Shown here piece by piece: positions 20,017 through 63,883 of a stretch of DNA of 64,000 nt; position 1 is the first letter of the stretch, and every line of letters begins with the position of its first letter. The DNA comes from a virus. The notes under the pieces were generated by a model. The model was not told the DNA's origin. It saw nothing but the letters and a program-made list of their open reading frames with translations, and did not search any database. The position numbers and the translations under genes were made by a program. Where the stretch lies: the IMG/VR virus record IMGVR_UViG_3300045988_109843, positions 1-64,000 of that record; one strand, 5' to 3'.

Positions 20017-21340
20017 AGCTTACTTCGTTCTTATCGTCTCGGAATCGCACAAAGGTCGGGAATTGCAGAGACTCAAGACCAGTCTTTTTGTCCATCGTGA
20101 CTTCTTTGTATTTACACTCCACAATCTTGCCAATGTAGTCATCGGGATTCGCCCGCACAGCAGCTCTCGTAGCATCATCAAAACCAGAACCAATGCGAAG
20201 CTCATTACCCTTATAATCCACAACGAGAGCTCCCATCGTGCCAGCCAGACGGTTCTGGCCTTCCTCGATTGCAGTGATTCGCAGATCAACAGTATAAAAA
20301 CGCTTAATTTTGAGACATCCGTTGTGACGAGCCCGGCGATAAGGGACATCCGTGTTCAACATAAGACCTTCCCAATCGTGCTCAACCGCATAATCAAGCC
20401 ACTTTGGAATCACGTTTTGGTCTTTCCCTTCATAGACCATGGGAACAATCTCAATATTTTCAAGGTTCTTGTGAGCAATCTCTGCACGAAGGCAATTCAA
20501 CCATTCACGGCGCGTCCGATACGGAACCGTGCATTTACTGCGGTCGAACTCGACAACAGGAATCACATCAAAAATCACAAATTTGATTTCAGTCTTGTCC
20601 TTATTGTCAGAATTAAGTAGGCCAGTTCCGAAACGAAACGCCTCTCCGTCCGACATTCCTTCGGGATTCTTGTAGATAAGTTCTCCGTCAAATACCAAAG
20701 AATCTCGCCTCGTCGCATCGCCGTCATACAGAGAAAGCAGGTCATTCTTTATATGGTCGAGCCCTTTAAACTTCTGAGCCTGCCGAGAGATAAGCTCGCC
20801 TCTATGCATGGTGCCCCTGTTTCCATTCATCTTCTGGCTCAAGCTGAACCAAATACCATCCTTCAGCTTAACCTTATCAATCGGGTATCCCTGCTGAACC
20901 TCCCAGACAGGAACAATTTCCTCGCCATATACCTTATTGATGGTAGTTGCTTCCACACCAATTGGCAGATTCTTAGTAAACAGTCGTTTCAGAAACTCTT
21001 CGTACTCAGGATTTTTATGTAAATAATTCTGGATTGTTGCAATAGATGCATCAGAGCCGGTATTGTGACCAGCACCCATAATATAAAGGTATCCGCAGCT
21101 GAGATACTGAACGTCGATATCCGGCTTTGCAGTTACCTTCTTATTGATCTTTGCGTCCGACAGTCCAGTAACAATTGCCGGGTCGAGCAGGAATCGGAAA
21201 AACGCCATCAGTTCATCAGCTTCATCTCCAAAATCCTTACGTGCATCCAGCAAAATGCGGGTCTTATCCGTCTTCTTCTTTGCTTTCTGCAATGCCTTAA
21301 CCATCGCATCAAGCTTACCTATGAGCTCTTTATCTGTCAT
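20009..21340 (-). CDS. ATP-dependent nucleic-acid ligase (DNA-ligase-like nucleotidyltransferase)
   Basis: 443 aa. Motif I KMNGNR (KxNG rather than KxDG), motif III LVFDGELIY, motif IV EGLMLN, motif V LKIKR. Confidence 0.7.
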   Translation of the reverse strand: MTDKELIGKLDAMVKALQKAKKKTDKTRILLDARKDFGDEADELMAFFRFLLDPAIVTGLSDAKINKKVTAKPDIDVQYLSCGYLYIMGAGHNTGSDASIATIQNYLHKNPEYEEFLKRLFTKNLPIGVEATTINKVYGEEIVPVWEVQQGYPIDKVKLKDGIWFSLSQKMNGNRGTMHRGELISRQAQKFKGLDHIKNDLLSLYDGDATRRDSLVFDGELIYKNPEGMSDGEAFRFGTGLLNSDNKDKTEIKFVIFDVIPVVEFDRSKCTVPYRTRREWLNCLRAEIAHKNLENIEIVPMVYEGKDQNVIPKWLDYAVEHDWEGLMLNTDVPYRRARHNGCLKIKRFYTVDLRITAIEEGQNRLAGTMGALVVDYKGNELRIGSGFDDATRAAVRANPDDYIGKIVECKYKEVTMDKKTGLESLQFPTFVRFRDDKNEVSYG

Positions 21341-21353
21341 AAAGCCTCCTCGT

Positions 21354-21376
21354 GTATCCTGTGTTATTTAGTTATA
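21354..21376 (+). repeat. 21-bp conserved motif, forward copy (GTATCCTGTGTTATTTAGTTATA)
   Basis: Sits between terminator 21380-21409 and the ligase start at 21340. RBS GAGGAGG follows immediately. Confidence 0.7.
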
Positions 21377-21379
21377 ATC

Positions 21380-21409
21380 AATAAAAAGGCTTGTCGTTAC
21401 GAGCAAGCC
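21380..21409 (-). terminator. rho-independent terminator (also reads as a terminator on the plus strand)
   Basis: Stem GGCTTGTCG / CGAGCAAGCC with loop TTA. Minus-strand RNA has a UUUUUAUU tail. Plus strand has TTTCCTTTCTC after the stem. Confidence 0.6.
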
Positions 21410-21420
21410 TTTCCTTTCTC

Positions 21421-21441
21421 GTATCCTGTATTATGTAGCTA
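21421..21441 (+). repeat. 21-bp conserved motif, forward copy (GTATCCTGTATTATGTAGCTA)
   Basis: Perfect 21-bp inverted repeat with 21480-21500, separated by a 38-bp spacer. Confidence 0.7.
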
Positions 21442-21485
21442 ATGGGAGAATTTTAAGCCTCCGGGATAGAGACTTCTTATAGCTA

Positions 21486-21516
21486 CATTATACAGGATAC
21501 CGATATGATTGTCAAT
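21486..21516 (-). promoter_or_regulatory. sigma70-type promoter TTGACA-17-TATAAT embedded in the 21-bp motif
   Basis: Minus strand reads aagcaTTGACAatcatatcggtatcctgTATAATgtagcta. The -35 is complementary to 21510-21515 and the -10 to 21487-21492. Confidence 0.65.
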
Positions 21517-33746: not shown

Positions 33747-34439
33747 TTATATCTCATCGAGAATTGCATTTATATCAATTTCGTTCTCGTTTTTGCTCTG
33801 TTTCGGTATTGTTTTCATTCGTTTCAGTACCGTTTCAGTCAGGTTTTCCTTCGTTTTGCTTTCGCTTTCACGGCGAATCGAAGCTAGTCTTTCTTTCCGT
33901 TCAAGATAACTAGGATATTGAGCCAACAAAACAGCCAAATCGTAATTCCATCGCTGGCTCATATCACAACCCTTAGCTTCTTTCTCGGCAATTATCTTAT
34001 CTAGTCTGGGTTTCGCTAGAACCCACATATCGTAAAGTTCTAGCGGAGGAATAGAACCTCTATATTTGTAATAATTACCGGAAATCAACTGCGTAAGTTT
34101 CGAGTAGAAGCTACCCGGAACAACCGCCGGGGCGTATGTATCTCGAATGTGGTCGAAAAGAATCTTTTTCTCTTCCTGTTTGATATGTGCAAGCTCACGA
34201 TTTTTGTCTTGCTCTCTCTTTTTGGAAAGAAGATCATCGACCTTTTTGTCCGTAGTGTCTTTCACTTTGTCAAAAAATGCCCTTAGCAGGTCATCTGTCC
34301 AAGGGCGTTTTTGATTTTTCTTTTTTTCTACAAAACAATCCTTATGGTAAAAACCCGTCTTGTCGTATAAAAAAGTGCTACGGTCTCGCTCGATGAAAAT
34401 ATTCTTCCCGCAAATCTTGCATTTACGGGTAAGTTCCAT
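33747..34439 (-). CDS. hypothetical protein with N-terminal zinc ribbon
   Basis: 230 aa. CKICG...HKDC. Confidence 0.5.
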   Translation of the reverse strand: MELTRKCKICGKNIFIERDRSTFLYDKTGFYHKDCFVEKKKNQKRPWTDDLLRAFFDKVKDTTDKKVDDLLSKKREQDKNRELAHIKQEEKKILFDHIRDTYAPAVVPGSFYSKLTQLISGNYYKYRGSIPPLELYDMWVLAKPRLDKIIAEKEAKGCDMSQRWNYDLAVLLAQYPSYLERKERLASIRRESESKTKENLTETVLKRMKTIPKQSKNENEIDINAILDEI

Positions 34440-35587
34440 TAAGCCAGTTCCTTCTCCATGACTGCGGCGACCTTCTTCAGTTCCTCAATATCAGTCATAG
34501 AACGGAATGCAGTAGACAGGCCAGCTGCCTTAACAGCCTTCTGCGCGGCGCTCTTCTTCACAGGAGAAGCGGAAGCAATCAGGTCATTCAGCTTTGCCTT
34601 GATGTCATCCATAGAAGGCTCTTTACTATCGGAACTCTTATCTGCCGGAACATCATCCGGCTCATCGTTTTCGATACCAAGGTCACGCATACTCAACTTA
34701 ACCTCAGTCTTAACAGCATCGTTTAAGCCGTTCTTAATGACGTTCTCCCGATTCTTTGCGCTACTAGAGATAATATCCTGATACTCAAGCAGGGTCAGAT
34801 CCTCAACGACCTCACCGCCCTTATGCATACCGGTACGATCCTTATCGAAGAAAGCGAGCTGCTGACCATCCTGAAAATACAGGCGGAACTCAGTATCAAC
34901 GTTGTACTCCTGACCAGCAAACCCATCAGGAATCTTACGACCAGTAGGCTCACTTACGATAGAACCATTCACAACCTTAGTATGTTTCTCGTCCTTCTCT
35001 CGGCAAACAACGATGTAGTTCACACCAGAAGCATTCAGATCCAGAATCAGAGACTGACCCTTGAAGTTCAAGGTATTGAAATCCTTGAGCTCCATACCAG
35101 CACCCTCAATCTTGACTGCCTTTTCATCACCAGTCAGACCCTGAGATGCAGCCTTAACCTTGGCACGCTTCTGCGAGAAGGCGGTGAGGCCCTGGGTAGC
35201 AGTCATCTTGAGGATGGAAGCTGAGTCAACAACCAGAGCGTCTGCACGGAACGGCTTGCCATCTGCATCCAGATAAACATCTCCATTCTCATCCTCAATA
35301 TCCTCATCATTGGTAACCATCTTGATATAATCCTGAACCTCTGCTAGAGACTGTGTGTAAACAATCAACAGATTATCAGGATTCACACCATTGGCTTCCA
35401 GCTCCTCAGTGTAATTATCAATAGAACCATTCTCGGTATCCAAATACAGAACACGGAACGGCTTGCCATCTGCATTCTTCAAATAGCACAGCTGCATAGC
35501 AGTACGAGACTTACCAGTTCCCTGTTCACCATAAATCAGCATATGAAGCTTCTTACGAACAGCAGATGCCTTACGAATCATAGCCAT
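34439..35587 (-). CDS. phage AAA_24/Sak4-like RecA-fold ATPase
   Basis: 382 aa. MLIYGEQGTGKSRTA Walker A, then YLDTENG, typical of Sak4-type recombination ATPases. Confidence 0.65.
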   Translation of the reverse strand: MAMIRKASAVRKKLHMLIYGEQGTGKSRTAMQLCYLKNADGKPFRVLYLDTENGSIDNYTEELEANGVNPDNLLIVYTQSLAEVQDYIKMVTNDEDIEDENGDVYLDADGKPFRADALVVDSASILKMTATQGLTAFSQKRAKVKAASQGLTGDEKAVKIEGAGMELKDFNTLNFKGQSLILDLNASGVNYIVVCREKDEKHTKVVNGSIVSEPTGRKIPDGFAGQEYNVDTEFRLYFQDGQQLAFFDKDRTGMHKGGEVVEDLTLLEYQDIISSSAKNRENVIKNGLNDAVKTEVKLSMRDLGIENDEPDDVPADKSSDSKEPSMDDIKAKLNDLIASASPVKKSAAQKAVKAAGLSTAFRSMTDIEELKKVAAVMEKELA

Positions 35588-35623: not shown

Positions 35624-35644
35624 GTATCCTGTGTTACTTAGCTA
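35624..35644 (+). repeat. 21-bp conserved motif, forward copy (GTATCCTGTGTTACTTAGCTA)
   Basis: Lies between the SSB stop and the sak4 start. One of at least 9 copies. Confidence 0.7.
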
Positions 35645-36758: not shown

Positions 36759-36903
36759 ATCAAGTCTCCTTTATGTAATTTTGTTTCATTGATAATCACT
36801 TATGTTTCCTGTTATCGTCTTAAATCAATTCATGCACTATTCATTTTATGTATTATCCTCCGTCTGGTTTATTGATGGCTTATATTTCATACGGCACCCG
36901 CCG

Positions 36904-37999: not shown

Positions 38000-39409
38000 T
38001 TAGTCTTCTGGAAAATGCTTCTTTGTCACCGCAACGCAAAACGGTTCAATTTCAGATCCCCAGATAGCAGTATCATCACCATACGTACTTTCAAAGACAA
38101 GCGGAAAGCCACCGATTCCATCGAAAAGACTGCCAAGCGTAGGATTCTCACCGATATACGGCTTCATTTTCTGGAAAATCCAGTACCACTGCGGCAACGC
38201 AATCGAATTGCCGAGTGCCTTATAACGAGCTGCGTCAGAAGTTTTATGCTTCTTTTCGTTCTCATCAATCCAGTCACCGATATCTGTCCATCCATCAGGG
38301 AACCCCTGAAGCCGTTCATCCTCCAAAGGAGTCAAACGGCGAACAATCCATCGTAGATTCTTCGTTTCCTTCTCTGCAATCAGATCAGTAGCGTCCTTAT
38401 AATCACGAGATTTCATCGTGCTGGCGTGTTCACTTTCCTTGTACTCACCAATGCGCTGCATTGCAAAGGCTTTCTTTTCAACGACCAGCGGCATATTATT
38501 ACCGCCCGTTCCCCACTGAGCAGTACAAGTCGGACTTGTATCGCCCTGCTGAGTGTATCGAGCGTCCTGACTGTGACTCTCAAATACAACCGGTGAAATC
38601 TTTTGTTTTGAATTATGTAATGAGGGATTTTCTACCAAGCAAATTAGCGTCTGGTCTTGCAAAGTAGAAATCGTTGCGCTCAATTCAGTTTGAACCAGAG
38701 CGCCTTTACCTCCACCTTCACATCCAGAACGGATTTTTAGAGTGTAGGCTGCAGGTTCTGTGCATCGAGTTGAAGTCTCTCGATGGTCTGATTCCAATAC
38801 TCGTCCAATTCCTTCTCTTCCAGACCTTCTTGTTCCTTTACTTTCTGCACCACCTGTGACAGAGTTCCTGGATTCCACCATTCGATCATATCCAGCAACG
38901 CTTGCTTCAGGAGTTCGGGTAAAGGTTTTCCACGCCGGGATGCTCTCACAAGAATCCCCTGACATGCTCGTGCGCTCAAATAGAATTTCTGAGGCACGTT
39001 GTCCTCCAAAATCCATGACAAGCGCGATTCTCTGGCGACGCTGGGCGACTCCCCAGTATTTAGCGTCGAACAATCTCCATGCAAGAGACCATCCATTACC
39101 AGAAATCGCTCCAGCTTTTTCCCACTTTCCGTTCTTTCCTGAAGGTCGAGGAATTGAAACGTCTGGCTCGACAATGCGTGCAAATCTTTCCAACACACAT
39201 CTGAAGTCTTCGCCTTTGCTTGAGCTGAAAGCTCCTCTGACATTTTCCCAGATTGCAAATTTTGGATGTTCTCCATTGGTAGCCTCCCTCATTTCTGTAA
39301 TCACACGAATCATTTCAAGGAACAATCCAGAGCGTTCACCAGCCAAACCTTCACGTTTACCGGCCTGACTCAAATCTTGGCATGGACTGCCTCCTGTGAT
39401 ACAGGACAC
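38000..39409 (-). CDS. DNA (cytosine-5) methyltransferase with circularly permuted motif order
   Basis: N to C order: motif IV GGSPCQDLSQAG, VI ENVRG, VIII QRRQRIALV, IX RRLTPLEDERLQGFP, X ALGNSIALP, then motif I LFDGIGGFPLVFE and II WGSEIEP at the C-terminus. GTG start. An in-frame stop lies 19 codons upstream. Confidence 0.75.
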   Translation of the reverse strand: MSCITGGSPCQDLSQAGKREGLAGERSGLFLEMIRVITEMREATNGEHPKFAIWENVRGAFSSSKGEDFRCVLERFARIVEPDVSIPRPSGKNGKWEKAGAISGNGWSLAWRLFDAKYWGVAQRRQRIALVMDFGGQRASEILFERTSMSGDSCESIPAWKTFTRTPEASVAGYDRMVESRNSVTGGAESKGTRRSGREGIGRVLESDHRETSTRCTEPAAYTLKIRSGCEGGGKGALVQTELSATISTLQDQTLICLVENPSLHNSKQKISPVVFESHSQDARYTQQGDTSPTCTAQWGTGGNNMPLVVEKKAFAMQRIGEYKESEHASTMKSRDYKDATDLIAEKETKNLRWIVRRLTPLEDERLQGFPDGWTDIGDWIDENEKKHKTSDAARYKALGNSIALPQWYWIFQKMKPYIGENPTLGSLFDGIGGFPLVFESTYGDDTAIWGSEIEPFCVAVTKKHFPED

Positions 39410-39478
39410 CGGCTCAATCTGCCATCCATGGAGTTGTGTGATATCTCCGTAATGCTTCAGTTTTCATTCCTCCTTTTA

Positions 39479-39499
39479 GTATCCTGTGTAATGTAGCTA
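39479..39499 (+). repeat. 21-bp conserved motif, forward copy (GTATCCTGTGTAATGTAGCTA)
   Basis: Between the tRNA-operon terminator and the methyltransferase start. Confidence 0.7.
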
Positions 39500-39515
39500 T
39501 AAACCTAAAAATTAG

Positions 39516-39546
39516 CGAAAAATAATAGACGTATTAACGTCATATT
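39516..39546 (-). terminator. rho-independent terminator after the tRNA array
   Basis: Minus-strand hairpin AAUAUGACGU-uaau-ACGUCUAUU followed by UUUUUCGC. Confidence 0.5.
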
Positions 39547-39602
39547 ATTTCATCGCCTATAAAACAAAAGTTCTAACAGATTTTATGTATGCCCTATCGG
39601 GC

Positions 39603-39677
39603 TGGTGGGACAGGCAGGAATCGGACCCGCGACCAAGCAGTTATGAGCTGCCAGCTCTACCATTGAGCTACTATCCC
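39603..39677 (-). tRNA. tRNA-Met/fMet-like (anticodon CAT)
   Basis: Manual fold: acceptor GGGATAG/CTGTCCC, D arm GCTC-AATGGTA-GAGC, anticodon loop CTCATAA, T arm GCGGG-TCCGATT-CCTGC, discriminator A, encoded CCA. Confidence 0.7.
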
Positions 39678-39882
39678 ACATATAAAAGAAAATCAGGAAC
39701 AGCCAACCATTCATTTTACATTCTAGTTTTCTGGCGAATCGAAGAGTATTTATCCGATAGCTAGTCGGCTTACACCTTATTTCTCTTCTTGTCTGGCTTG
39801 ACGTCCTTTACCGGTATGACGCCTTTCCGGTCGCCAATGTACGGCCAATCCCCGAACGAGCTAGAATAACTGATTTTCTTTT

Positions 39883-39957
39883 TGGAGCAGCGAATGGGAA
39901 TCGAACCCACTCCATCGACTTGGAAGGACGATGTACTAACCGTTATACGATCGCTGC
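39883..39957 (-). tRNA. tRNA-Gly (anticodon TCC)
   Basis: Acceptor GCAGCGA/TCGCTGC, anticodon loop CTTCCAA, T loop TTCGATT, discriminator U, encoded CCA. Confidence 0.65.
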
Positions 39958-40043
39958 ATGTAAACCCAGCCTAACCCATTACGAGCGAGCTGGGAATAAT
40001 AGTAAAGGAGATCAACAAACGGTACGCAACCATAAGTTGATAA

Positions 40044-40128
40044 TGGTGCCACAGGCGAGACTCAAACTCGCAAGCCTTTCGGCGTCTACCCCTAAAATAG
40101 ATGTGTAGGTCAATTCCACCACTGTGGC
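40044..40128 (-). tRNA. tRNA-Leu (anticodon TAG), long variable arm
   Basis: Acceptor GCCACAG/CTGTGGC, anticodon stem TCTAT/GTAGA with loop TTTAGGG, long variable arm, T loop TTTGAGT, CCA encoded. 85 nt. Confidence 0.65.
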
Positions 40129-40135
40129 ATATAAA

Positions 40136-40209
40136 TTGCGCCGGAAAAAATCGAACTTTCGCAATCGGGACTTCAAAGGACCCTGCCTTAACCGCTTGGC
40201 TACGACGCA
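40136..40209 (-). tRNA. tRNA-Gln (anticodon TTG)
   Basis: U1:A72 acceptor typical of bacterial tRNA-Gln, anticodon loop CTTTGAA, T loop TTCGATT. 74 nt, no encoded CCA. Confidence 0.55.
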
Positions 40210-40214
40210 TTATA

Positions 40215-40290
40215 TGGTCCGAGTGACAGGTCATGATCCTGCGGCCTCATGCTCCCAAAGCACGCGCTCTACCAACTGAGCTACACCCGG
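40215..40290 (-). tRNA. tRNA-Pro (anticodon TGG)
   Basis: 5' CCGGGTGTAGCTCAGTTGGTAGAGC..., anticodon loop TTTGGGA, unusual T loop ATCATGA, CCA encoded. Confidence 0.55.
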
Positions 40291-40297
40291 ATATCAG

Positions 40298-40382
40298 TGT
40301 CACTACTGGGAGTCGAACCCAGATGGTATCGCTACCGTCGGAGCTTAAGTCCGATGCGTCTCGCCAATTTCGCCATAGTGAC
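40298..40382 (-). tRNA. tRNA-Leu (anticodon TAA), long variable arm
   Basis: Perfect acceptor GTCACTA/TAGTGAC, anticodon stem TCGGA/TCCGA with loop CTTAAGC, long variable arm, T arm TGGG-TTCGACT-CCCA. 85 nt. Confidence 0.6.
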
Positions 40383-40461
40383 ATATCGCTGTCTGTCCAG
40401 CAGTCAACCGTCTTTCCGATTTGCCAATATTCTAGCACTTACCCATCTGCAAATGAGTTGA

Positions 40462-40537
40462 TAGCCCTACTCAGATTTGAACTGAGAATTTTACAAGGTT
40501 TGAGCTTGTTGCGTATGCCTAATTCCGCCATAGGGCC
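40462..40537 (-). tRNA. tRNA of uncertain identity (anticodon CAA, short variable arm)
   Basis: Acceptor GGCCCTA/TAGGGCT (G1:U72), anticodon stem ACAAG/CTTGT with loop CTCAAAC, T arm CTCAG-TTCAAAT-CTGAG. A CAA anticodon without a Leu-type long variable arm is atypical. Confidence 0.45.
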
Positions 40538-40647
40538 ATATTGCCGGTCTTTCCCGGCTGTCAGCCCCGCGCAGGGCATTTTCGGAGGAAGAAATATCAC
40601 GACACTTCGTTAATTATTTTAACGAAAATCACGATAAAATGTCTATT

Positions 40648-41031
40648 TTAATTCAACTCTTCCAGCTTCTTCATCAACTGGTCTACGTCCATATCTTCCA
40701 GTTCCTTATCCTTCTTCTTTGCCACAATCTTCATGATCTTATCGCGCTGCGCCTTCTTTTCGGCAGCATTCACACGAGCCTCAGATTCAGCCAGCTTGAC
40801 AGATACGATGTACTTGACCAACTCGATCTTGTTTGCCAGTTCAGTATCCTCGGCGCTCTTAACAGACAGCAAAGAATCTTCATCTGCAGTTTTCTTCTGA
40901 CGGTTCAGAGTCTTAAAAATCGCATCCAATGCCTCGACGCTCAGATCCCACAGATCCTCAACAGTCATAACACCCTTGTAAGTAAAGCGATAGCGATTAC
41001 GTGTTGCGATTTCAAACAGATTCTTTTCCAT
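40648..41031 (-). CDS. hypothetical protein
   Basis: 127 aa. Predicted coiled-coil C-terminus. Confidence 0.5.
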   Translation of the reverse strand: MEKNLFEIATRNRYRFTYKGVMTVEDLWDLSVEALDAIFKTLNRQKKTADEDSLLSVKSAEDTELANKIELVKYIVSVKLAESEARVNAAEKKAQRDKIMKIVAKKKDKELEDMDVDQLMKKLEELN

Positions 41032-41045
41032 AATTATTTCTCCTT

Positions 41046-43124
41046 TCAGATAACTACTTTCAGAACTCGCTCAGTAGCTCCCTGCACCTTAACAATAAAG
41101 AAATCATGCTTTGTCTCAGAGAAGCCAACACCAGACAGCTGGTCATCCACGGACTGAACTGCCATCTGAGAACCAAGTGCCTCAAACACACGCTTATGCT
41201 GTAGCAGTTCCGCCTTCAGGAATTCGTTGTAAAATCCGTTCGGCTTTTCGGGATTAACGCAATCTTTGAGCATGAAGAAGTAGTGACGGTTGCCATTGCC
41301 GATCTGCTCATCCCAGTAGTTCGGAGAATACATCGCCACAGACACAGGTACGAACTGATTGGAATTCACACCCCAGATCTCGCGGGTGCTAGTAGAACTG
41401 GGCAGCAGCTCCTTGATAGAGAACTTACCATCCTTCAGTGTGACCTTTGCCACGGCGACATTCTGACCCTGATGCAGCAGCTTATCATAGTTAAACGAGT
41501 AGATATTGCCATCGAATTCGATCTCAGCACGGAAACCAGTTTTACCGCCACGACCAGCAAAGCATCTCACATAGAAGCTGTACTCGCCTTCCTTCATCTT
41601 CTTAATGTCAGGCCAGGTGATGTTCTCAACAGCAGCCTTATCCCGCAAAGGATGAGTGATATCCACATCCAGACGGCCATCGGTACGATAATTCCAACAC
41701 CTTCCGAAATAGATGTGATTGTTATCGGGTTCAATGCAATGAGCATCCTCATCGTTTTCATCCCACTCGCCCGGCTTATCGTTCCACTGAATAGAAAAAC
41801 GCAGCACGCCATCGACCTTGCCGCCAGCAGCCTTAACGTTTTCGCGAATATCGCTGTCTGCCATATTGCCGGTATATGCCCAACTGAAACCATTAGGCCA
41901 CTTGAACATGCTCGGCGCACTCTTATCCTGCGGAGCAATCAGAGACATCATATTCTTCTCGAAACGATTTTCCATGAACAGCTCCAGCCCAGTCGCAGTC
42001 GGCAGCACGTCCTTGATGAACTTGTCGATGCCAATTTCCTCTGCGCGGCCAAACTTCTTGGGATCAATTGCAACAGTCTTAGCCATTGCTTCAAACGGAT
42101 TTGTAGCGCCAGCAATACGAGGGGCAGCATCCCGGTTGCAGAACAGGATATTATTGGCGGTGATATCGTCCAGAGTAGCAAACCGGCGACCCAGACTGCT
42201 CATATAGCCCAGCTCGGTGACAGTCTTCTGTGTATCTTCCAACATCTTCTTGGTGAAAATCGCCTTGGGACGCTTATAGTTTGCGGGAGCAACAACCTTC
42301 TCAAAGGCGGTAACGGCGGAATCCACATCCATACCTTCGCTCAAATTTACCAGCAAAGTACCGATAGCGGTGTTACGGATACGAAGCTGTCCCATATCGC
42401 TCCACGCCGGTGCCAGCCAAACATAAGCGGCCTTGTTCTCAGCCAGAGTGTTGTCGTATTCGATTTTGTTAGTCTTAAATACCTTAACGGCATTTTCAAA
42501 TTCCTTACCGCGATACAGACTATTCTGTGCAATCAGCTCCAGAACAGTATCAACAGCATCCATGGTCAGTTCTTCCAGAGAACGCTTGTATACATTTGCG
42601 GAATCACGCCACTGAGCCATTTTGGTAGCCACATCATCAGGCCGCACAACGAAACGCTGCGGAATCTTGACTGCGAAATGATCCCAAGTATGCACGTCCT
42701 TGTGGTTCTCATCGTACTCGTAGCTCATCTCAGTTCCGAACATATTGCCAGAACCGATCATATTGCGACTGACAAAATACGGATTCACAATAGTGCGGCT
42801 CTTCACATAAGCATCCAGAGCGTCCACAACAGGCTGATACTTGGCAGACTTTGCATCAAAATCCCACACAGTAATCATTTTTCCATCATCAAACGCTACC
42901 AGCTTGCCGATATTCTTCACGAAACGGCGGCAGCAGGAACAGTCATGCTCGCGCCGCTTACGGAACAACTCATTCGTGCCAGCCGGGAAGCTGTCGAGAT
43001 ACAGATTGTACAGCTCATCCTCGTCTGCATCGGTGATAAACAGTGGATTCTCACCCTTCACCATCTCATTGAAGTGGTCCTGCAGCAGTGCACGAAATTT
43101 CTTGAAATCAGACATTGTTATCAT
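41046..43124 (-). CDS. large hypothetical protein (about 690 aa)
   Basis: Track ORF 41046..43379. The N-terminal 85 codons run through the promoter motif and terminator, so the start is placed at MITMSDFKKF (43124 or 43115). Visibly GC-richer than its surroundings. No family recognised. Confidence 0.55.
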   Translation of the reverse strand: MITMSDFKKFRALLQDHFNEMVKGENPLFITDADEDELYNLYLDSFPAGTNELFRKRREHDCSCCRRFVKNIGKLVAFDDGKMITVWDFDAKSAKYQPVVDALDAYVKSRTIVNPYFVSRNMIGSGNMFGTEMSYEYDENHKDVHTWDHFAVKIPQRFVVRPDDVATKMAQWRDSANVYKRSLEELTMDAVDTVLELIAQNSLYRGKEFENAVKVFKTNKIEYDNTLAENKAAYVWLAPAWSDMGQLRIRNTAIGTLLVNLSEGMDVDSAVTAFEKVVAPANYKRPKAIFTKKMLEDTQKTVTELGYMSSLGRRFATLDDITANNILFCNRDAAPRIAGATNPFEAMAKTVAIDPKKFGRAEEIGIDKFIKDVLPTATGLELFMENRFEKNMMSLIAPQDKSAPSMFKWPNGFSWAYTGNMADSDIRENVKAAGGKVDGVLRFSIQWNDKPGEWDENDEDAHCIEPDNNHIYFGRCWNYRTDGRLDVDITHPLRDKAAVENITWPDIKKMKEGEYSFYVRCFAGRGGKTGFRAEIEFDGNIYSFNYDKLLHQGQNVAVAKVTLKDGKFSIKELLPSSTSTREIWGVNSNQFVPVSVAMYSPNYWDEQIGNGNRHYFFMLKDCVNPEKPNGFYNEFLKAELLQHKRVFEALGSQMAVQSVDDQLSGVGFSETKHDFFIVKVQGATERVLKVVI

Positions 43125-43147
43125 TCTCCATTCAAATACTATTTTCT

Positions 43148-43168
43148 GTATCCTGTGTTGTATAGTTA
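43148..43168 (+). repeat. 21-bp conserved motif, forward copy (GTATCCTGTGTTGTATAGTTA)
   Basis: Between terminator 43171-43213 and the start of the 690-aa gene. Confidence 0.7.
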
Positions 43169-43170
43169 CA

Positions 43171-43213
43171 ATGTTAAAATCAAGGGGCCGAAGCCCCCTG
43201 TTTTTAATTTTTG
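43171..43213 (-). terminator. rho-independent terminator (bidirectional)
   Basis: GGGGC-cgaa-GCCCC hairpin at 43184-43197. Minus-strand tail UUGAUUUUAACAUU. Plus-strand tail CTGTTTTTAATTTTT. Confidence 0.6.
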
Positions 43214-44130
43214 TGGAAGTATTCGATCCAGCCCTTGTATCCTTGCCGGAAGCTAATGTATGCAACCTTGCTACACTTTCTTCCGATAATGTCCGCAAGA
43301 GGATCTTTACCATTTCCGAAACTAAGTTCTGCAAGATTAAATTCTGGATGAGTTTTACAGTAGTTATAAACCTTGACATACTCGCCGTTTCTGGTCAGAT
43401 GTCTTCGGTCTAAAGCCTTTGAATGATATCTTCTTTCGAGAATATCATTCAAGCGCGTGAAATAACTATGAATTGTGTTTGTAGACATTCTTGGATCACT
43501 GTTTGCACCAGTTCTATCCTCTGTTTTGCGAAGAATGTAATCACCATTTATGACATAAAACGTTCTGTATCCTCCCATATTTGGAGCATCGTATTGTTTC
43601 ATTTCATAACACTGCTTGATGATATTCATCAGCCTCGCGTCAACATCAGTTTTGCCAAGAACGGTACGAGATTCAAAATCAACATCGTTAATTGTCAGAT
43701 TAGAAACCTCTTCTGAAGTAAGGCCAATCCAGTACAGCACGGCAATTACGTTCATACGAATCTGATATGGTTCTTCATACTTGTCCAAGAAATCAACAAA
43801 CTCATCAACTGATGCAAAATACTTGCCCTCGTACATGTTGTCCGAGCTCACATCATCCTCTGAGAATTCAGCTAAGTCATACATGCTCGCTCGATCCTCA
43901 CTTTTGATGTAACCTGTAATTATCGACTTTACATTTCTGAACGACCGACTTGAGTTCACCCAATTGTATTTGGCAAACATCTTTACGAAATCATCTTTTG
44001 TGAAGTCAAACAACTCATACCCACGCTCGGCCTCGTAATCCATAACATGGTTAAGCGTCGATATAACAAACTCACCGCTTCTATCAGAATACTTTTCAGC
44101 AAAAGCTTTGATCTTTTCTTCAGTAAGCAT
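43204..44130 (-). CDS. tyrosine-recombinase-like protein (phage integrase family, divergent)
   Basis: 308 aa. ...LYWIGLTSEEVSNLTINDVDF... core-binding/catalytic junction, HSYFTRL and RRHLTR boxes, C-terminal Tyr candidates. Weak match. Confidence 0.45.
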   Translation of the reverse strand: MLTEEKIKAFAEKYSDRSGEFVISTLNHVMDYEAERGYELFDFTKDDFVKMFAKYNWVNSSRSFRNVKSIITGYIKSEDRASMYDLAEFSEDDVSSDNMYEGKYFASVDEFVDFLDKYEEPYQIRMNVIAVLYWIGLTSEEVSNLTINDVDFESRTVLGKTDVDARLMNIIKQCYEMKQYDAPNMGGYRTFYVINGDYILRKTEDRTGANSDPRMSTNTIHSYFTRLNDILERRYHSKALDRRHLTRNGEYVKVYNYCKTHPEFNLAELSFGNGKDPLADIIGRKCSKVAYISFRQGYKGWIEYFHKN

Positions 44131-44183: not shown

Positions 44184-44609
44184 TCAAGCAAATGCGGCAA
44201 AATTCTGAAATTCCATGGTATGTTGTACGCCGCTCAAGAATGCTGCGAGTAAAAATGGTTCATCCTTGCATCTTGCCATTGCGATCATATTCATCTGACG
44301 CTCCGACAAGACACCAAGTTTCTTAATGAACTGTCCTTTATTAAGTGTATCAGTCTCTTCACAGAGAACAATACTGTCAACCTCTAGGAAATCACAGTCT
44401 TCCTTTGAGAGTAGAACATGAACCGGAGAACGCTTGCATATTCTTGAAGACAACGGATTCCCTTTAATTGTTGGGCTGAAGAGGTTGCGCTTGTTGTTGC
44501 TTGTCACAACGAAGGGCCGAATGCCGCGCTGCTGATGACCTGTCGCATTGGATAGATCAACCAACCAAACCTCTCCGACCTTTGGGTCAATATTGATATC
44601 CATAGTCAT
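44184..44609 (-). CDS. MazF/PemK-family endoribonuclease toxin homolog
   Basis: 141 aa. GEVWLVDLSNATGHQQRGIRPFVVTSNN...V.V.PLSSR.......V.L......FLEVDSIVLCEETDTLNK matches the MazF/PemK fold signature. Confidence 0.65.
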   Translation of the reverse strand: MTMDINIDPKVGEVWLVDLSNATGHQQRGIRPFVVTSNNKRNLFSPTIKGNPLSSRICKRSPVHVLLSKEDCDFLEVDSIVLCEETDTLNKGQFIKKLGVLSERQMNMIAMARCKDEPFLLAAFLSGVQHTMEFQNFAAFA

Positions 44610-44639: not shown

Positions 44640-44675
44640 TAGCTACATTATACAGGATACAATTGAAGAAGTCAA
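44640..44675 (-). promoter_or_regulatory. sigma70-type promoter TTGACT-17-TATAAT (21-bp motif, inverse copy) driving the mazF-like gene
   Basis: Minus strand reads ctcTTGACTtcttcaattgtatcctgTATAATgtagctatggaacggagctac... An A/T-rich upstream element sits above it. A GTAGCT...AGCTAC palindrome spans the predicted transcription start. Confidence 0.65.
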
Positions 44676-45051: not shown

Positions 45052-45145
45052 CTTTCAAGATACATTATACACATCTTTTTGTTTTTCGTCAATATGTTGT
45101 ACATCTTTTTGTCGTATGATTCGCCGAAATTTTAGATGATGCCAT

Positions 45146-59533: not shown

Positions 59534-59537
59534 TTTA

Positions 59538-61076: not shown

Positions 61077-61288
61077 CGCTCAGGTTCTGACAAAAACTCA
61101 CGATAAAACTCCAAGTATTCCAAGCGTTCGAAAAGTTCTTGTTCATATAACCTATCACAATATTGGTCTAAATATTCCTGTTCATAATCTCGAATTTCAT
61201 TTTCGAGTTTTTGTTTTTCTTCAAAGAAATCATCTATTCCTTCTTCGATAGGATTATCTCTTTGTACTTTCATATTTCCCCTCGTCAA
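61073..61288 (-). CDS. hypothetical protein
   Basis: 71 aa. Confidence 0.4.
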   Translation of the reverse strand: MTRGNMKVQRDNPIEEGIDDFFEEKQKLENEIRDYEQEYLDQYCDRLYEQELFERLEYLEFYREFLSEPER

Positions 61289-61307
61289 TCATTGTAAAAT
61301 ATCTGTT

Positions 61308-61613: not shown

Positions 61614-61640
61614 ATTTTCATCTCCTATAAAAGCATGATT

Positions 61641-61856
61641 TTAGATATAAAAAGCATCATAAAGATCCTCGGGCTTATCATTCGGCATCCATACTTTTGC
61701 ATTATCATTAAGGAAGTAACAGCAACCAAAAAATCCCATAGGAGAATCACAAAGATTCTGTTCACCATCTTTAACACCAACTTGATAAACAATATAGATA
61801 AACTCAGCAAGTTCATGTTTATCCATTCGCTTAATGCGGTCGTACATTGTTTCCAT
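61641..61856 (-). CDS. hypothetical protein
   Basis: 71 aa. Confidence 0.4.
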   Translation of the reverse strand: METMYDRIKRMDKHELAEFIYIVYQVGVKDGEQNLCDSPMGFFGCCYFLNDNAKVWMPNDKPEDLYDAFYI

Positions 61857-61870
61857 ATCAATCGCTCCTT

Positions 61871-62260
61871 TTAGATGTCACTCTCTTCGTTTTTAAGACG
61901 ACACTGTTCTTGACACTTGTCATAATAATCAATAACTTCGTTAATCTTCTCAGGAGATTCTTCTCTATATTTCTTATACATCTCCACTGCCTCTTTTGCT
62001 TTACAATCATATGCCCACCGATAAGCCTTTACAAATCTCTGCTGACGGCGACCATAATTCTTATCCTTCTCTCTAGCTTCATATATCTTTTTAACAGTTC
62101 TTTCAGTGACCTTATCGTTGTTTATCGAAACTCTATGCATTACATCAGAAAACTCAAGAAACATACTTTCAGGTACATATCCATTGTGATCTCGCATCTG
62201 TGTCCACATCTTTCCAAGCATCTGAAAGTCCTTTTTACCGATATAAGCCATACCTAACAC
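61871..62260 (-). CDS. hypothetical protein
   Basis: 129 aa. Confidence 0.5.
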   Translation of the reverse strand: MLGMAYIGKKDFQMLGKMWTQMRDHNGYVPESMFLEFSDVMHRVSINNDKVTERTVKKIYEAREKDKNYGRRQQRFVKAYRWAYDCKAKEAVEMYKKYREESPEKINEVIDYYDKCQEQCRLKNEESDI

Positions 62261-62343
62261 TCCTTTTAATATTATTGTGTTTTTACATTCTGGTAGCGGT
62301 TATGTCTGCCCTAGTACCGCCAATCACCTAGCATAATAACGTA

Positions 62344-62670
62344 TTATTTTAATTTTCCTTTCAAATATAACTCCTGCTTATAATGCCTATGTTCTTTCAT
62401 GATTTTATTTCGTTCTTCTAATGACGGTTTATAATCTTTCCAGTGACTCTTGATGTGATCATCGTTTTTCTTTTTGGATTCTGGATTAACTATAAGCAAA
62501 ATAGATTTCTTACTCACGTTATATTCTTTCGCCAAATCCATTAAGCTAAATAATCCAGTAGAATATTTTTTTCGGATTTCTTCTTTCATTACAGATGTAA
62601 TCTTTACTCTTCTATCTTGTTGTTCTGAAAGTTTTATTTTTTCAGATTTATAAGGCATTATGACACCCAC
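62344..62670 (-). CDS. hypothetical protein with possible helix-turn-helix
   Basis: 108 aa. LFSLMDLAKEYNVSKKSILLIV looks like a helix-turn-helix. Confidence 0.4.
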   Translation of the reverse strand: MGVIMPYKSEKIKLSEQQDRRVKITSVMKEEIRKKYSTGLFSLMDLAKEYNVSKKSILLIVNPESKKKNDDHIKSHWKDYKPSLEERNKIMKEHRHYKQELYLKGKLK

Positions 62671-62906
62671 TCCTGACTTCTTATATAATCCTTAATAGAT
62701 GGATTGTATTCATTACGGTCAATGTATTGACACAGGACACGCTGCACATCACGGTTATCACCGTAATCCATCGCTAACGAAATATCTTCACCGTGAGTTC
62801 CAACACCTAGGCGTTCATACTTTCTAACTTCAAGATAAAAGTCATGTGAGCTGTAGTGTCTGCCATCCCGGCGATCAAGAATGCTATCAATAATCAAAAT
62901 ATTCAC
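62658..62906 (-). CDS. hypothetical protein
   Basis: 82 aa. Confidence 0.4.
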   Translation of the reverse strand: MNILIIDSILDRRDGRHYSSHDFYLEVRKYERLGVGTHGEDISLAMDYGDNRDVQRVLCQYIDRNEYNPSIKDYIRSQEWVS

Positions 62907-62909
62907 CTC

Positions 62910-63146
62910 TTAACCAAAAATAAAAATGGCTAACGTTCTTGAAGTCACAGCATAATAAACACCGGTTTCATGACCTCTTAACAACATTCCGTTACAACCA
63001 TAAACACCGGAAGAATATCCAACTTGAGAAAGAAACCCTTCTTTTTTGATGATTCTTTCATAATCTTCGTTGTTTGCACGAGTAACATCCTCTGCCATTC
63101 CAAGGGCAACCATATTCTTCAGTTCTTTCTGAGTGTACTTACGCAT
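62910..63146 (-). CDS. hypothetical protein
   Basis: 78 aa. Confidence 0.4.
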   Translation of the reverse strand: MRKYTQKELKNMVALGMAEDVTRANNEDYERIIKKEGFLSQVGYSSGVYGCNGMLLRGHETGVYYAVTSRTLAIFIFG

Positions 63147-63687
63147 TTTCTTCCATCTCCTTTACAGTCTCATCGTCCCAATGGAATCCACGCTTTTCAT
63201 AAAGCGGAATCCAATGAGCTTCAAAAAAGTCGTAGCCACAACCATCAATGCCGAAAATGTACTCAAAATCCTCTTGCTCGTAGATACGGAATCCGCAATC
63301 TGCCATTTCCTGAAGATGATTTTCAAGCCACCAGTTGTCGCAACTGTCGCTAAACTGCCACATCGTTCCCCACATCGGAAAGAAGTCGTCACGCTCGACT
63401 TCAAAATCATCTTCTCTGACATCAACTTCCTCGCCAGTGCCGTCGAGACAAATTTTGTAAGTGTTGTCATCTTCGTTGTAGCTCCGAATCTCACCATTTT
63501 CACCATAGTGGTCACCGCTAAAGATATAGATACGATCACCACAAGACGGCGGCGTGATTTCAGTAATGCCTTCGCCATTCTCTTCCAAATCGACCTTGGC
63601 GAGCTTTTCAATAACACTCTGAGGAATCGCATTAAATTCCCGAACCCATGCGTAAGCTGCATCCTTCTTAGTTTTGTACATAGCCAT
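63139..63687 (-). CDS. hypothetical highly acidic protein (first gene downstream of the 63.8 kb promoter)
   Basis: 182 aa, very D/E-rich. Confidence 0.5.
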   Translation of the reverse strand: MAMYKTKKDAAYAWVREFNAIPQSVIEKLAKVDLEENGEGITEITPPSCGDRIYIFSGDHYGENGEIRSYNEDDNTYKICLDGTGEEVDVREDDFEVERDDFFPMWGTMWQFSDSCDNWWLENHLQEMADCGFRIYEQEDFEYIFGIDGCGYDFFEAHWIPLYEKRGFHWDDETVKEMEENA

Positions 63688-63711
63688 AGCAGTTGACTCT
63701 CCTTTTCTTTC

Positions 63712-63732
63712 GTATCCTGTGTTATATAGCTA
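63712..63732 (+). repeat. 21-bp conserved motif, forward copy (GTATCCTGTGTTATATAGCTA)
   Basis: Forms a 21-bp inverted repeat with 63772-63792 (1 mismatch, 1 G:U-type position). Lies 24 nt upstream of the 63687 start codon. Confidence 0.7.
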
Positions 63733-63737
63733 TATGG

Positions 63738-63765
63738 TAAAAATAAAAGTCCTATAACGGACTGC
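63738..63765 (-). terminator. weak hairpin + U-tract between the two motif copies
   Basis: AGTCC-tataac-GGACT (5 bp) with a minus-strand tail UUUAUUUUU. Only a marginal stem. Confidence 0.3.
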
Positions 63766-63771
63766 CTTTTC

Positions 63772-63808
63772 TAGCTACATAATACAGGATACCGCTGATT
63801 TTGTCAAG
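63772..63808 (-). promoter_or_regulatory. sigma70-type promoter TTGACA-18-TATTAT (21-bp motif, inverse copy)
   Basis: Minus strand reads gtgcTTGACAaaatcagcggtatcctgTATTATgtagctag. The -35 is complementary to 63803-63808 and the -10 to 63779-63784. Confidence 0.6.
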
Positions 63809-63883
63809 CACTTTAATGTAGATTTTATTAACGTCGCATTTTAGCGCGTTGATACGTTGCTTATTCATGACCATTTTGTGAAT

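Follow-up and report, generated by a model that had tools for sequence, protein, structure and literature searches.

A conserved 21-bp motif of gut phages as a candidate promoter of a YonO-like RNA polymerase

A 64,000-nt stretch of virus DNA (IMG/VR record IMGVR_UViG_3300045988_109843, positions 1 to 64,000; hereafter the window) carries a 21-bp motif in two orientations, sometimes ahead of a gene and sometimes reversed within what looks like a host-type promoter. What could one sequence be doing in both settings? The original prediction considered an operator of a phage transcription factor, a second promoter class, or both. Below, we describe the two settings, follow the motif into related phages and weigh the explanations.

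The motif and its two settings

On the minus strand, which carries all genes in the window, the motif reads TA[G/A]CTA-N6-ACAGGATAC, or in its fuller form TA[G/A]CTA-tATAAy-ACAGGATAC. A motif search allowing up to three mismatches returned nine matches against 0.00 expected in 100 shuffles, and upheld the coordinates and orientations of all nine copies first noticed. Six copies are gene-directed (a-e and i) and three are reversed (f, g and h; Table 1). A weaker copy suspected near 36813 could not be recovered, as nothing there lies within four mismatches of the motif. Over the 15 fixed positions (TAGCTA-N6-ACAGGATAC), the nine copies have zero or one mismatch and the next best site in the 64 kb has four, so the copy set is sharply bimodal; the motif itself is real. 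It is asymmetric, holds ~30 bits over 21 bp with almost no degeneracy among sites, and shows by inspection no similarity to its own reverse complement. The phage has many small proteins without known function, as well as Ant-like and Bro-N proteins, and tyrosine recombinase genes are also present.

Table 1. Motif copies and associated elements in the 64-kb window
Feature	Position	Strand	Description
Forward copy d (TAACTAAATAACACAGGATAC)	21354..21374	-	13 nt upstream of ATG of ATP-dependent DNA ligase gene (20009-21340); orthologous site conserved in relatives
Strong intrinsic-terminator hairpin and T-tract	21376..21414	-	between copies e and d; -15.8 kcal/mol, z -4.08
Forward copy e (TAGCTACATAATACAGGATAC)	21421..21441	-	gene-directed half of divergent pair f/e; followed by terminator, no gene
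Spacer of pair f/e, 38 nt	21442..21479	-	weak hairpin 21455-21475; -8.8 kcal/mol, z -2.0
Inverse copy f	21480..21500	+	TAGCTA to ACAGGATAC on + strand; gives the gene-strand sigma-A promoter its spacer half, -10 and +1
Sigma-A/sigma-70-type promoter TTGACA-17-TATAAT (12/12)	21487..21515	-	overlaps copy f; -35 and TAnnnT conserved in relatives
Forward copy b (TAGCTAAGTAACACAGGATAC)	35624..35644	-	13 nt past stop of 367-aa gene; 36 nt upstream of AAA_24 ATPase gene (34439-35587); no terminator before it
Forward copy a (TAGCTACATTACACAGGATAC)	39479..39499	-	downstream of tRNA cluster and terminator, upstream of C5 DNA methyltransferase region
Strong terminator hairpin and T-tract	39514..39557	-	precedes copy a; -19.2 kcal/mol, z -5.71
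Forward copy c (TAACTATACAACACAGGATAC)	43148..43168	-	32 nt upstream of 689-aa gene (41046-43115)
Strong terminator hairpin (GGGGCTTCGGCCCC core)	43174..43207	-	precedes copy c; -18.2 kcal/mol, z -5.44
Inverse copy g	44640..44660	+	lone, without forward partner
Sigma-A-type promoter TTGACT-17-TATAAT (11/12)	44647..44675	-	overlaps copy g; ahead of MazF/PemK-like gene 44184-44609; conserved in 20/20 distinct relative sequences
Forward copy i (TAGCTATATAACACAGGATAC)	63712..63732	-	24 nt upstream of 182-aa gene (63139-63687)
Spacer of pair h/i, 39 nt	63733..63771	-	weak A-tract/hairpin/T-tract element, stem 63748-63763; -8.0 kcal/mol, z -2.4
Inverse copy h	63772..63792	+	partner of forward copy i
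Sigma-A-type promoter TTGACA-17-TATTAT (11/12)	63779..63807	-	overlaps copy h; -35 in 34/34 distinct relative sequences

Each reversed copy overlaps a close match to the sigma-A promoter consensus, in agreement with the proposal that the inverse copies are complete minus-strand sigma-70 promoters; the promoter at 63.8 kb, formerly given a spacer of 18 nt, has one of 17 nt. Both parts of these promoters are conserved in the relatives, where TAnnnT is kept in 62 of 62 distinct sequences of reversed copies and the -35 likewise in every distinct sequence. At site h, relatives differ in the 8-9 nt that separate the -35 from the motif but keep the -35 itself. The promoter at copy g putatively drives the MazF/PemK-like gene that follows it.

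The gene-directed copies have neither a -35 nor a TGn. The equivalent of T-7 is a C in 45% of these copies and the equivalent of A-11 is not an A in 20%; judged by these features, none of the forward copies is a sigma-A promoter. At copies d, a and c, the stretch from terminator to gene holds no sigma-A-like promoter, and none lies near any of the unpaired forward copies (a, b, c, d and j; site j is described with the relatives below). Forward copies had been said always to sit 15-40 nt upstream of a start codon; five of the six do, at 11-36 nt, the exception being the copy at 21421, where a terminator follows instead of a gene. Copy a precedes a 17-codon mini-ORF, with the start of the methyltransferase ORF 69 nt downstream. 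The ribosome-binding sites at d and a begin 3-6 nt past the motif, so any start site there must be inside the motif.

A hairpin terminator directly upstream, also described as invariable, is present at the copies at 21354, 39479 and 43148, whereas the pair spacers hold weak hairpins only and the copy at 35624 has none (folding of its upstream sequence is no better than that of shuffles, z -1.3). The terminators ahead of many forward copies are predicted to be strong enough to halt the host polymerase, and the gene-directed copies are the sole conserved candidate start signals behind the strong ones.

The inverted pairs noted at 21.4 and 63.7 kb are present, with spacers of 38 and 39 nt. Three such pairs occur per genome, at a near-constant spacing of 38-40 nt over 148 pairs. 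Variants of the f/e spacer in the relatives place C-G, U-G or U-A at one stem position. In pair k/l, seen in the relatives, a TTGAAT-17-TGgTATAAT promoter aimed at the polymerase gene described below fills the 38-nt spacer exactly.

Conservation in related phages and the phage polymerase

The motif was also looked for in related phages, as the original prediction had advised, and is present there in 12 orthologous site groups. At least 120 IMG/VR stretches carry it, almost all from gut phage contigs of ~80-140 kb, and it is conserved in place, amid drifting flanks, in over 100 related ~135-kb genomes from gut phages. Its fixed positions are 96-100% conserved, compared with 64-97% in the flanks and only 63.5% in the upstream flank of site j. 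The ~12 sites per genome, six of them unpaired, are spread over 50 kb and not clustered. Orientation is tied to context: all nine site groups without a -35 are gene-directed, and all three reversed groups have a conserved -35.

YonO-type enzymes, of the two double-psi beta-barrel type, are related to the multisubunit RNA polymerases of cells but minimal, with a single chain. The relatives of the window encode such a YonO-like single-chain RNA polymerase of 927-930 aa, which matches the Pfam RdRP family (E 2.4e-15) and aligns with YonO by BLASTP over 514 aa at 25% identity (E 1e-24 to 3e-28); its metal-binding motif reads NGADFDGD, compared with FDNDGD in YonO. A tblastn search with this protein found SPbeta yonO, as well as closer homologues in Clostridium phage c-st and Enterocloster phages. 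Window positions 63353-63983 are 94.8% identical to a locus in which the polymerase gene lies 8.4 kb further on, and from synteny the polymerase gene of the window's own phage is probably on the other strand, ~8.4 kb past the end of the window. The first reading of the sequence missed the polymerase because the gene is outside the window.

Among 70 loci collected by their polymerase protein and not by the motif, site j is present in all 70 and pair k/l in 69, and in 70 of 70 genomes the polymerase gene has a motif copy immediately before it. The polymerase arm runs co-directionally into packaging genes, and over its first ~20 kb after the polymerase gene, a span that includes the terminase gene, it has no motif copy. 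At polymerase identities of at least 81% the motif does not vary, and genomes with identities of 46-57% lack it. Four of the 10 such diverged loci examined have a repeated 18-24 nt element of their own, which lies just ahead of the polymerase gene and recurs within the locus, at only 2-6 copies per locus; three of the four elements have an AT-rich, TATA-like centre.

In SPbeta, YonO makes one long late operon from a single promoter and transcribes late genes only (PMC5467207). This promoter, P(YONO), has one mapped start site and an undefined sequence, and whether YonO-type enzymes recognise promoters alone or need helper factors was left open (PMC5467207). No later description of a YonO-type promoter appears in the searchable literature, and the SPbeta yonN-yonK region shows no similarity to the motif.

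Weighing the explanations

On balance, with confidence a little better than even, we take the 21-bp motif to be the promoter of the phage-encoded YonO-like polymerase, its reversed copies overlapping early promoters of the host polymerase. Among the options of the original prediction, a second promoter class is the best supported (sole conserved start candidates behind strong terminators, no -35, -10 key positions not kept, a polymerase encoded by the phage family); the pure operator reading is weaker because it leaves the genes behind strong terminators without a promoter.

Several known systems resemble this arrangement. Promoters of the T7/T3/SP6-class polymerases, of N4 RNAPII and of the phiKZ/AR9 non-virion polymerases are, like the motif, asymmetric and near-invariant elements of ~20 bp with an AT-rich melting segment; they lack a -35, are gene-directed and stand behind terminators that stop the host polymerase. 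In those systems, and as proposed here, host sigma-type promoters act first and the element is lineage-specific, differing between phages with diverged polymerases. The polymerase here is not T7-like, being a YonO-type single chain related to multisubunit polymerases. In contrast to these systems, a quarter of the sites here are embedded backwards in host-type promoters, and each genome has three divergent pairs of near-constant spacing. SPbeta offers a homologous polymerase with a DFDGD-type motif, whose gene heads a co-directional arm into packaging genes and is followed by a long stretch without a further promoter copy (PMC5467207); it differs in having one mapped start (PMC5467207), compared with ~12 sites per genome here, mostly before replication genes. 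The dual use of an AT-rich core has a parallel in bidirectional promoters sharing one symmetric -10 region, which Warman et al. reportedly described in 2021: one AT-rich hexamer can be the melting element both ways, and the extent of the conserved side blocks of the motif roughly matches the separation of two divergent start sites. Here, however, two polymerases would read the two directions, and the flanks are conserved far beyond sigma-70 needs.

Several points count against the polymerase-promoter reading. Most motif sites precede replication (middle) genes, whereas SPbeta YonO transcribes late genes; directional reversed copies would fire antisense into upstream genes; a simple promoter model does not account for the near-constant spacing of the pairs; and copy e runs into a strong terminator within 9 nt.

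The main competitor, which we consider unlikely, is an operator for a phage DNA-binding regulator such as an early-promoter repressor. The 21-mer would be bound in either orientation, shutting off the sigma-A promoters at f, g and h and in the k/l spacer and serving as a roadblock or marker at other sites. Three copies do lie across the -10 and spacer of sigma-A promoters of consensus type, the k/l copies bracket another exactly, and the 38-40 nt spacing of the 148 pairs would be compatible with two protomers binding cooperatively; candidates are the small proteins without known function and the Ant-like and Bro-N proteins. An asymmetric ~30-bit site with hardly any degeneracy would nevertheless be unusual for an operator, for which dyad or tandem symmetry, degenerate copies and placement at promoters in either orientation would be expected. 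The strict link between orientation and context, the absence of any sigma-A promoter to regulate at lone copies a, b, c, d and j, and the promoterless genes behind strong terminators argue against it as well, and the Pfam scan of ~60 proteins returned no helix-turn-helix or sigma candidate. Somewhat less probable again is that the forward copies are -35-less promoters of the host core polymerase, used through a phage sigma or an appropriation or activator factor, with the YonO-like enzyme confined to the late arm. Phage factors of this kind acting on host polymerase include T4 gp55, MotA/AsiA and SPO1 gp28. The AT-rich centre of the motif is close to TATAAT, TATA-like centres recur in the equivalent elements of three distant lineages, PMBT24, a related phage in culture, has a gene for a SigK-like sigma factor, and the late-only role of SPbeta YonO (PMC5467207) fits this division of labour. 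Against it stand the varying -10 key positions of the forward copies, a contiguous 21-bp element that exceeds known sigma -10 elements, and a motif copy that also heads the polymerase/late arm; Pfam and a tblastn search with the PMBT24 sigma found no sigma factor in the window and sampled arms, which cover all but ~35 kb of the genome. The host polymerase may still be involved at the motif, given the -10-like AT-rich centre and the few copies per locus behind the cross-lineage pattern.

Two further readings are far less probable. Antitermination of the lambda Q/qut type, invoked as an analogy in the original prediction, would have a phage protein bind the motif at sigma-A promoters and alter the host polymerase, which would then read through downstream terminators. 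Sites f and h have the expected order, with a promoter, a motif overlapping its -10 and spacer, and a hairpin or terminator within 10-95 nt, and the first transcribed bases at f (TATAAG) resemble, by eye, a -10-like pause element. The analogy covers at most three of the ~12 sites per genome, since nine have no promoter and g has no terminator; the forward copies face the other way and follow the terminators, a place where a binding site for Q would serve no purpose, and the Pfam scan of ~60 proteins gave no Q-like hit. We therefore rate it as very improbable. Scarcely more can be said for a structural element, the least probable of the readings, be it an invertible promoter switch, a long RNase III-type hairpin of paired copies in read-through RNA, or replication iterons. 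The three inverted pairs per genome, a k/l spacer exactly one promoter long and the tyrosine recombinase genes would suit such an element. A spacer flipped relative to its flanks was found in none of 135 orientable pairs of related genomes (assemblies give the majority orientation only and would miss rare inversion), and a 38-nt segment would be very short for inversion by a recombinase. In the pairs compared, the central hexamers of the two copies differ without compensating changes, and the sigma-A starts come after the upstream arm, so the two arms would not be on one early RNA. Half of the ~12 sites are unpaired, iterons are clustered whereas these sites are dispersed over 50 kb, and an Rfam search matched tRNAs only.

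A possible order of events and its implications

If the motif is the promoter of the YonO-like polymerase, transcription may proceed as follows. The host sigma-A polymerase would fire the consensus early promoters, including the one in the k/l spacer directed towards the polymerase gene. As the phage polymerase builds up, it would initiate in or just after the AT-rich centre of the forward copies and transcribe from them the minus-strand replication and nucleotide-metabolism arm in the window. It would also transcribe its own arm, which continues into the packaging genes and carries no more motif copies, comparable to the long late operon of SPbeta. On the reversed copies, it would shut off the early sigma-A promoters: their AT-rich core is shared with the sigma-A -10, so occupancy by the phage polymerase would exclude the host polymerase. 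At pairs f/e and h/i, the forward copy 38-39 nt downstream would then take over the same genes. Of all the steps, this handover is the most conjectural. That the motif is the first YonO-type promoter consensus and is built into a host-to-phage handover, reversed copy off and forward copy 38-39 nt downstream on, is a tentative proposal, possible but rather doubtful.

The analysis provides a candidate 21-bp promoter that recurs ~12 times per genome across more than 100 genomes of gut phages, and a candidate so sharply defined in so many genomes makes the question of YonO-type promoters directly testable. If the polymerase-promoter reading is true, a transcription map would follow for the ~135-kb phages of gut Clostridia considered here, an abundant family that is uncultivated, together with an orthogonal polymerase/promoter pair. 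It would also reveal an unusual coupling, in which shut-off of a host-polymerase promoter goes with turn-on of a phage-polymerase promoter.

A 21-bp motif in two orientations

The window corresponds to a large phage's replication and nucleotide-metabolism arm; the phage has no close cultured relative, its best DnaE match being 47% identical (Clostridium innocuum phage). All credible window genes lie on the minus strand, so the motif is described on that strand, where it reads TA[G/A]CTA-N6-ACAGGATAC. A search for the pattern GTATCCTGTRTWRTRTAGCTA with up to three mismatches returned nine matches, against none in 100 dinucleotide-preserving shuffles, and these recover all nine copies of the original prediction in position and orientation. 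Each copy has at most one mismatch in the 15 fixed positions, while the next best site in 64 kb has four. This gap makes the set discrete and rules out the weaker copy proposed near 36813, where no site lies within four mismatches. An Rfam search of the whole window found tRNAs only.

Features of the window and of compared genomes. Forward copies point at the downstream gene; inverse copies are reversed and lie inside a sigma-A promoter. L-numbers are fetched stretches of other genomes.
Feature	Position	Strand	Details
Forward copy d	21354	-	
Forward copy e	21421	-	
Forward copy b	35624	-	
Forward copy a	39479	-	
Forward copy c	43148	-	
Forward copy i	63712	-	
Inverse copy f	21480	+	
Inverse copy g	44640	+	
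Inverse copy h	63772	+	
Promoter f	21515-21487	-	TTGACA-17-TATAAT, 12/12 consensus match
Promoter g	44675-44647	-	TTGACT-17-TATAAT, 11/12
Promoter h	63807-63779	-	TTGACA-17-TATTAT, 11/12
Further sigma-A promoter	45064-45092	-	TTGACG-17-TATAAT, 11/12, followed by GTATCT
Strong terminator after promoter f	21376-21414		
Region of predicted RNA from promoter f	21383-21500	-	~95 nt
C5 cytosine methyltransferase region	38000-39499	-	ORF with GTG start at 39409
17-codon mini-ORF	39467-39414	-	strong ribosome-binding site
tRNA cluster	39603-40538	-	seven: Met, Gly, three Leu, Gln, Pro
689-aa gene	41046-43115	-	PHROG 1735
657-codon ORF	41283-43256	+	
689-aa gene and 127-aa neighbour	40648-43121		86-89% identical to MT835544.1 (L001) 16001-19335
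Recombinase-like gene	43204-44130	-	
MazF/PemK-like endoribonuclease gene	44184-44609	-	Pfam E 5e-19
Nucleotide metabolism genes	window		anaerobic ribonucleotide reductase, ThyX, dUTPase, FolD
Replication/repair genes	window		ATP-dependent DNA ligase, RecD2-like helicase, DnaE-type polymerase III alpha subunit, RecJ, primase, DnaB-like helicase
Other genes	window		C5 methyltransferase, seven tRNAs, MazF-like protein, three tyrosine recombinases
Large terminase of relatives	L124 17984-20229	+	120-aa and 439-aa ORFs
HNH/homing-endonuclease-like gene	L076 10136-11086		
Repeated element ATACAAATATAnnATTTACA	L207		six copies
Repeated element TCGTGCTAATTATAYSATTTAC	L205		two copies
Repeated element GTCAAGCTAARAATATTATTTACA	L211		two copies
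Repeated element TTGTACCAACATTCTATT	L212		three copies
Perfect 58-nt tandem repeat	L207 1694-1869		three copies
Perfect 58-nt tandem repeat	L205 5350-5465		two copies
Repeat array	L216		seven copies, period ~41-43 nt
Repeat TTACGAATTGA	PMBT24, e.g. 1089, 5045, 73417, 87083 (-)		seven copies

On the gene strand, each inverse copy makes up part of a promoter: the spacer's downstream half, the -10 and the +1. The earlier description of these copies as complete promoters holds at all three, which are near-consensus, although the spacer at 63.8 kb is 17 rather than 18 nt. Between 21 and 64 kb, a score of 11 or 12 of 12 is reached at only two more sites on the minus strand. In relatives, the inverse copies keep the gene-direction hexamer TAnnnT in 62 of 62 distinct sequences; their -35 is conserved, and the 8-9 nt between it and the motif are variable. 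One further near-consensus sigma-A promoter (45064-45092) has TATAATGTA in common with the inverse motif and lacks the rest of it. The MazF/PemK-like gene lies immediately behind promoter g and is followed by the recombinase-like gene; no antitoxin was recognised adjoining it. A link between the motif and the cleavage sequence of the MazF-like toxin was considered, but as only some copies contain UACAU the idea was abandoned. Promoter f and the strong terminator behind it would produce an RNA with a small hairpin and an RNA copy of motif e, and promoter h with its weak terminator is predicted to yield one of ~35 nt; small RNAs or primers are possible identities for both.

The six forward copies all lack a -35 element. 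Five of them are followed by a start codon at a distance of 11-36 nt, and copy e by a terminator 9 nt away. Strong terminator hairpins precede copies d, a and c (-15.8, -19.2 and -18.2 kcal/mol, respectively; z -4.1 to -5.7). The terminator-motif-gene cassette that had been proposed is thus present at three sites but is not a rule: the spacers of the pairs f/e and h/i contain weak hairpins only (about -8 kcal/mol, z about -2), and copy b directly follows a stop codon. Compared among relatives, the forward hexamer is T-A-T-A-A-Y, in which the equivalent of T-7 is C in 45% of copies and that of A-11 is G or C in 20%, and a conserved TAnnnT was not found in any other register. At d and a the motif is followed within 3-6 nt by the ribosome-binding site, so any start site for those genes must lie inside the motif. 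On this sequence evidence, the forward copies are unlikely to be sigma-A promoters.

The mini-ORF lies between copy a and the methyltransferase start, and the methyltransferase matches the Pfam DNA_methylase profile only from position 64; it may lack the N-terminal AdoMet-binding motif, or this may be split or frameshifted. The tRNA cluster separates copy a from the 689-aa gene module, and the 657-codon ORF, unusually long for chance, is antisense to almost the whole 689-aa gene. MT835544.1, an unrelated human-gut phage contig, is the only megablast match among deposited phages; it shares the 689-aa module only, has no motif and is not informative for it. The homology ends exactly at the start codon, indicating that this module moves between phages without the motif.

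Conservation and genome layout in relatives

An exact IMG/VR scan for TAGCTA-N6-ACAGGATAC matched at least 120 stretches, and the matches listed are almost all human-gut phage contigs of roughly 80-140 kb. Relatives are also present in Clostridia, such as the element of Anaerocolumna xylanovorans DSM 12503. Family matches sort into 12 orthologous site groups, nine of which are the window sites and three (j, k and l) lie outside it. Within groups, in figures that select on the motif itself, the 15 fixed positions are 96-100% conserved versus 64-97% for the flanks (63.5% for the upstream flank of site j). The check was therefore repeated on 70 loci fetched through a protein, of which all 70 contain site j and 69 contain the pair k/l. 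Of the 12 site groups, the nine that lack a -35 all face the next gene, and the three with a conserved -35 all face the opposite way.

On either side of the divergent pair k/l lies an arm. The one headed by copy l enters the window on the minus strand, with ~6.5 kb of genes before the pair h/i at 63.7 kb. The one headed by copy k is entirely co-directional: a 389-aa protein, an Ant-like protein, site j, the polymerase, a ClpP-like protease, PhoH, terminase and further large genes. Downstream of the polymerase gene, roughly 20 kb contain no motif copy (up to three mismatches) in sets of 70 and 76 genomes. The large terminase of relatives appears split into a 120-aa ORF matching the terminase N-terminal region and, ~560 nt later, a 439-aa ORF without a PHROG match; the same arm contains an HNH/homing-endonuclease-like gene, which suggests intron- or intein-type interruptions there.

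Each genome has three inverted pairs, k/l, f/e (21.4 kb) and h/i, in all of which the TAGCTA ends face inward, and none of those examined was convergent. Spacing is nearly constant among 148 pairs (38 nt in 110, 39 nt in 31 and 40 nt in 7). The 38-nt spacer of k/l is exactly one sigma-A promoter, TTGAAT-17-TGgTATAAT, aimed at k and the polymerase arm, whereas in f/e and h/i the promoter makes use of the inverse copy itself. An invertible switch is made unlikely by the spacer orientation, flipped in none of the 135 pairs orientable by their flanks. A long RNA hairpin processed by RNase III is contradicted, since paired copies show uncompensated differences in their central hexamers and the sigma-A start sites leave the upstream arm out of the early RNA.

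The YonO-like polymerase and its distant relatives

Site j lies directly upstream of a gene for a 927-930 aa protein (for example L116 3940-6723) that matches Pfam RdRP (PF05183, E 2.4e-15). By tblastn, YonO of Bacillus phage SPbeta is 25% identical, and proteins of Clostridium phage c-st and Enterocloster bolteae phages are 39% identical; the BLASTP alignment with YonO spans 514 residues at E 1e-24 to 3e-28. Its NGADFDGD is the beta-prime subunit metal-binding signature, the YonO counterpart being FDNDGD. A PDB sequence search gave no significant match. At its alignable end the window matches, over the final 630 bases and at 94.8% identity, a relative whose polymerase gene lies 8.4 kb further on, and the window's phage very probably has this gene itself. 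YonO is a proven DNA-dependent RNA polymerase and itself transcribes the late operon of SPbeta, from a single start site; the promoter sequence and the need for helper factors were left open (PMC5467207). No later paper defining a YonO-type promoter was found in the searchable literature.

The motif is absent from Enterocloster phage PMBT24, the SPbeta yonN-yonK region and GTDB Clostridia genomes with 46-57% identical polymerases. Four of ten loci with such polymerases have a repeated element of their own, both immediately before the polymerase gene and at other places in the locus; the remaining six have no convincing one. In L207, L205 and L211 the element follows a plan of specific block, TATA-like centre and second specific block, less clearly so in L212. 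These elements resemble expected co-evolving polymerase-promoter pairs, but copies are few and the TATA-like centre also fits the host polymerase.

In the cultured phage PMBT24 (OQ326496.2; L122/L123), the polymerase shares 39% identity with the YonO-like one, and a SigK-like sigma factor is also encoded. The TTACGAATTGA repeat of this phage lies within a longer common stretch, TTTTACTTTACGAATTGAA; three copies come directly after gene-strand terminator hairpins and one after a weaker possible hairpin, and the repeat could be this phage's equivalent signal. The 58-nt repeats of L207 and L205, distant clostridial relatives, lie ~3.5 kb upstream of the YonO-like gene, the relative position of k/l in the window's family. 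These repeats and the L216 array are possible origin or iteron arrays.

Candidate functions of the motif

The best explanation, which we hold to be somewhat probable on comparative grounds, is that the motif is the promoter of the YonO-like polymerase. It draws on the conservation, asymmetry and directionality of the motif, on forward copies free of sigma-A constraints and placed behind terminators, and on a family polymerase with motif copies before its gene and heading both arms. Apart from the forward copies, no conserved candidate start signal stands behind terminators that are strong enough to stop the host polymerase. There are two rivals. An operator for a phage DNA-binding regulator is an unlikely reading, and a promoter element for a phage sigma factor or activator acting on the host polymerase is quite improbable. 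Both are kept alive by the near-constant pair spacing, by the terminators after promoters f (strong) and h (weak), and by the inverse copies, which retain all 21 motif positions though as promoters they would fire antisense; most sites, moreover, precede middle rather than late genes. Pfam identified no phage sigma factor or helix-turn-helix gene in ~60 proteins of the window and both arms, a set that is not exhaustive for small proteins and takes in none of ~35 kb of the genome, and tblastn with the PMBT24 sigma factor found no phage sigma factor. Q/qut-type antitermination, of which the promoter-terminator-operator layout had seemed reminiscent, is contradicted by specific tests, as are invertons, RNA hairpins and iterons.

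If the motif is the promoter of the YonO-like polymerase, host polymerase would use the sigma-A promoters first, among them the one that points to the polymerase arm, and the phage enzyme would then initiate at forward copies, transcribing the replication arm and, by read-through, the late arm, much as YonO serves one long operon in SPbeta. More speculatively, inverse copies share their melting hexamer with the sigma-A -10, so the two polymerases might exclude each other there, with takeover by a forward copy 38-39 nt downstream. Copy g, the one inverse copy that stands alone, lacks such a partner, and the MazF-like gene behind it would then be early-only. As far as the searchable literature shows, the comparative link proposed here between the motif and a YonO-type polymerase is new. 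The motif is far more widespread than the window alone shows and very likely marks a phage-specific transcription code.
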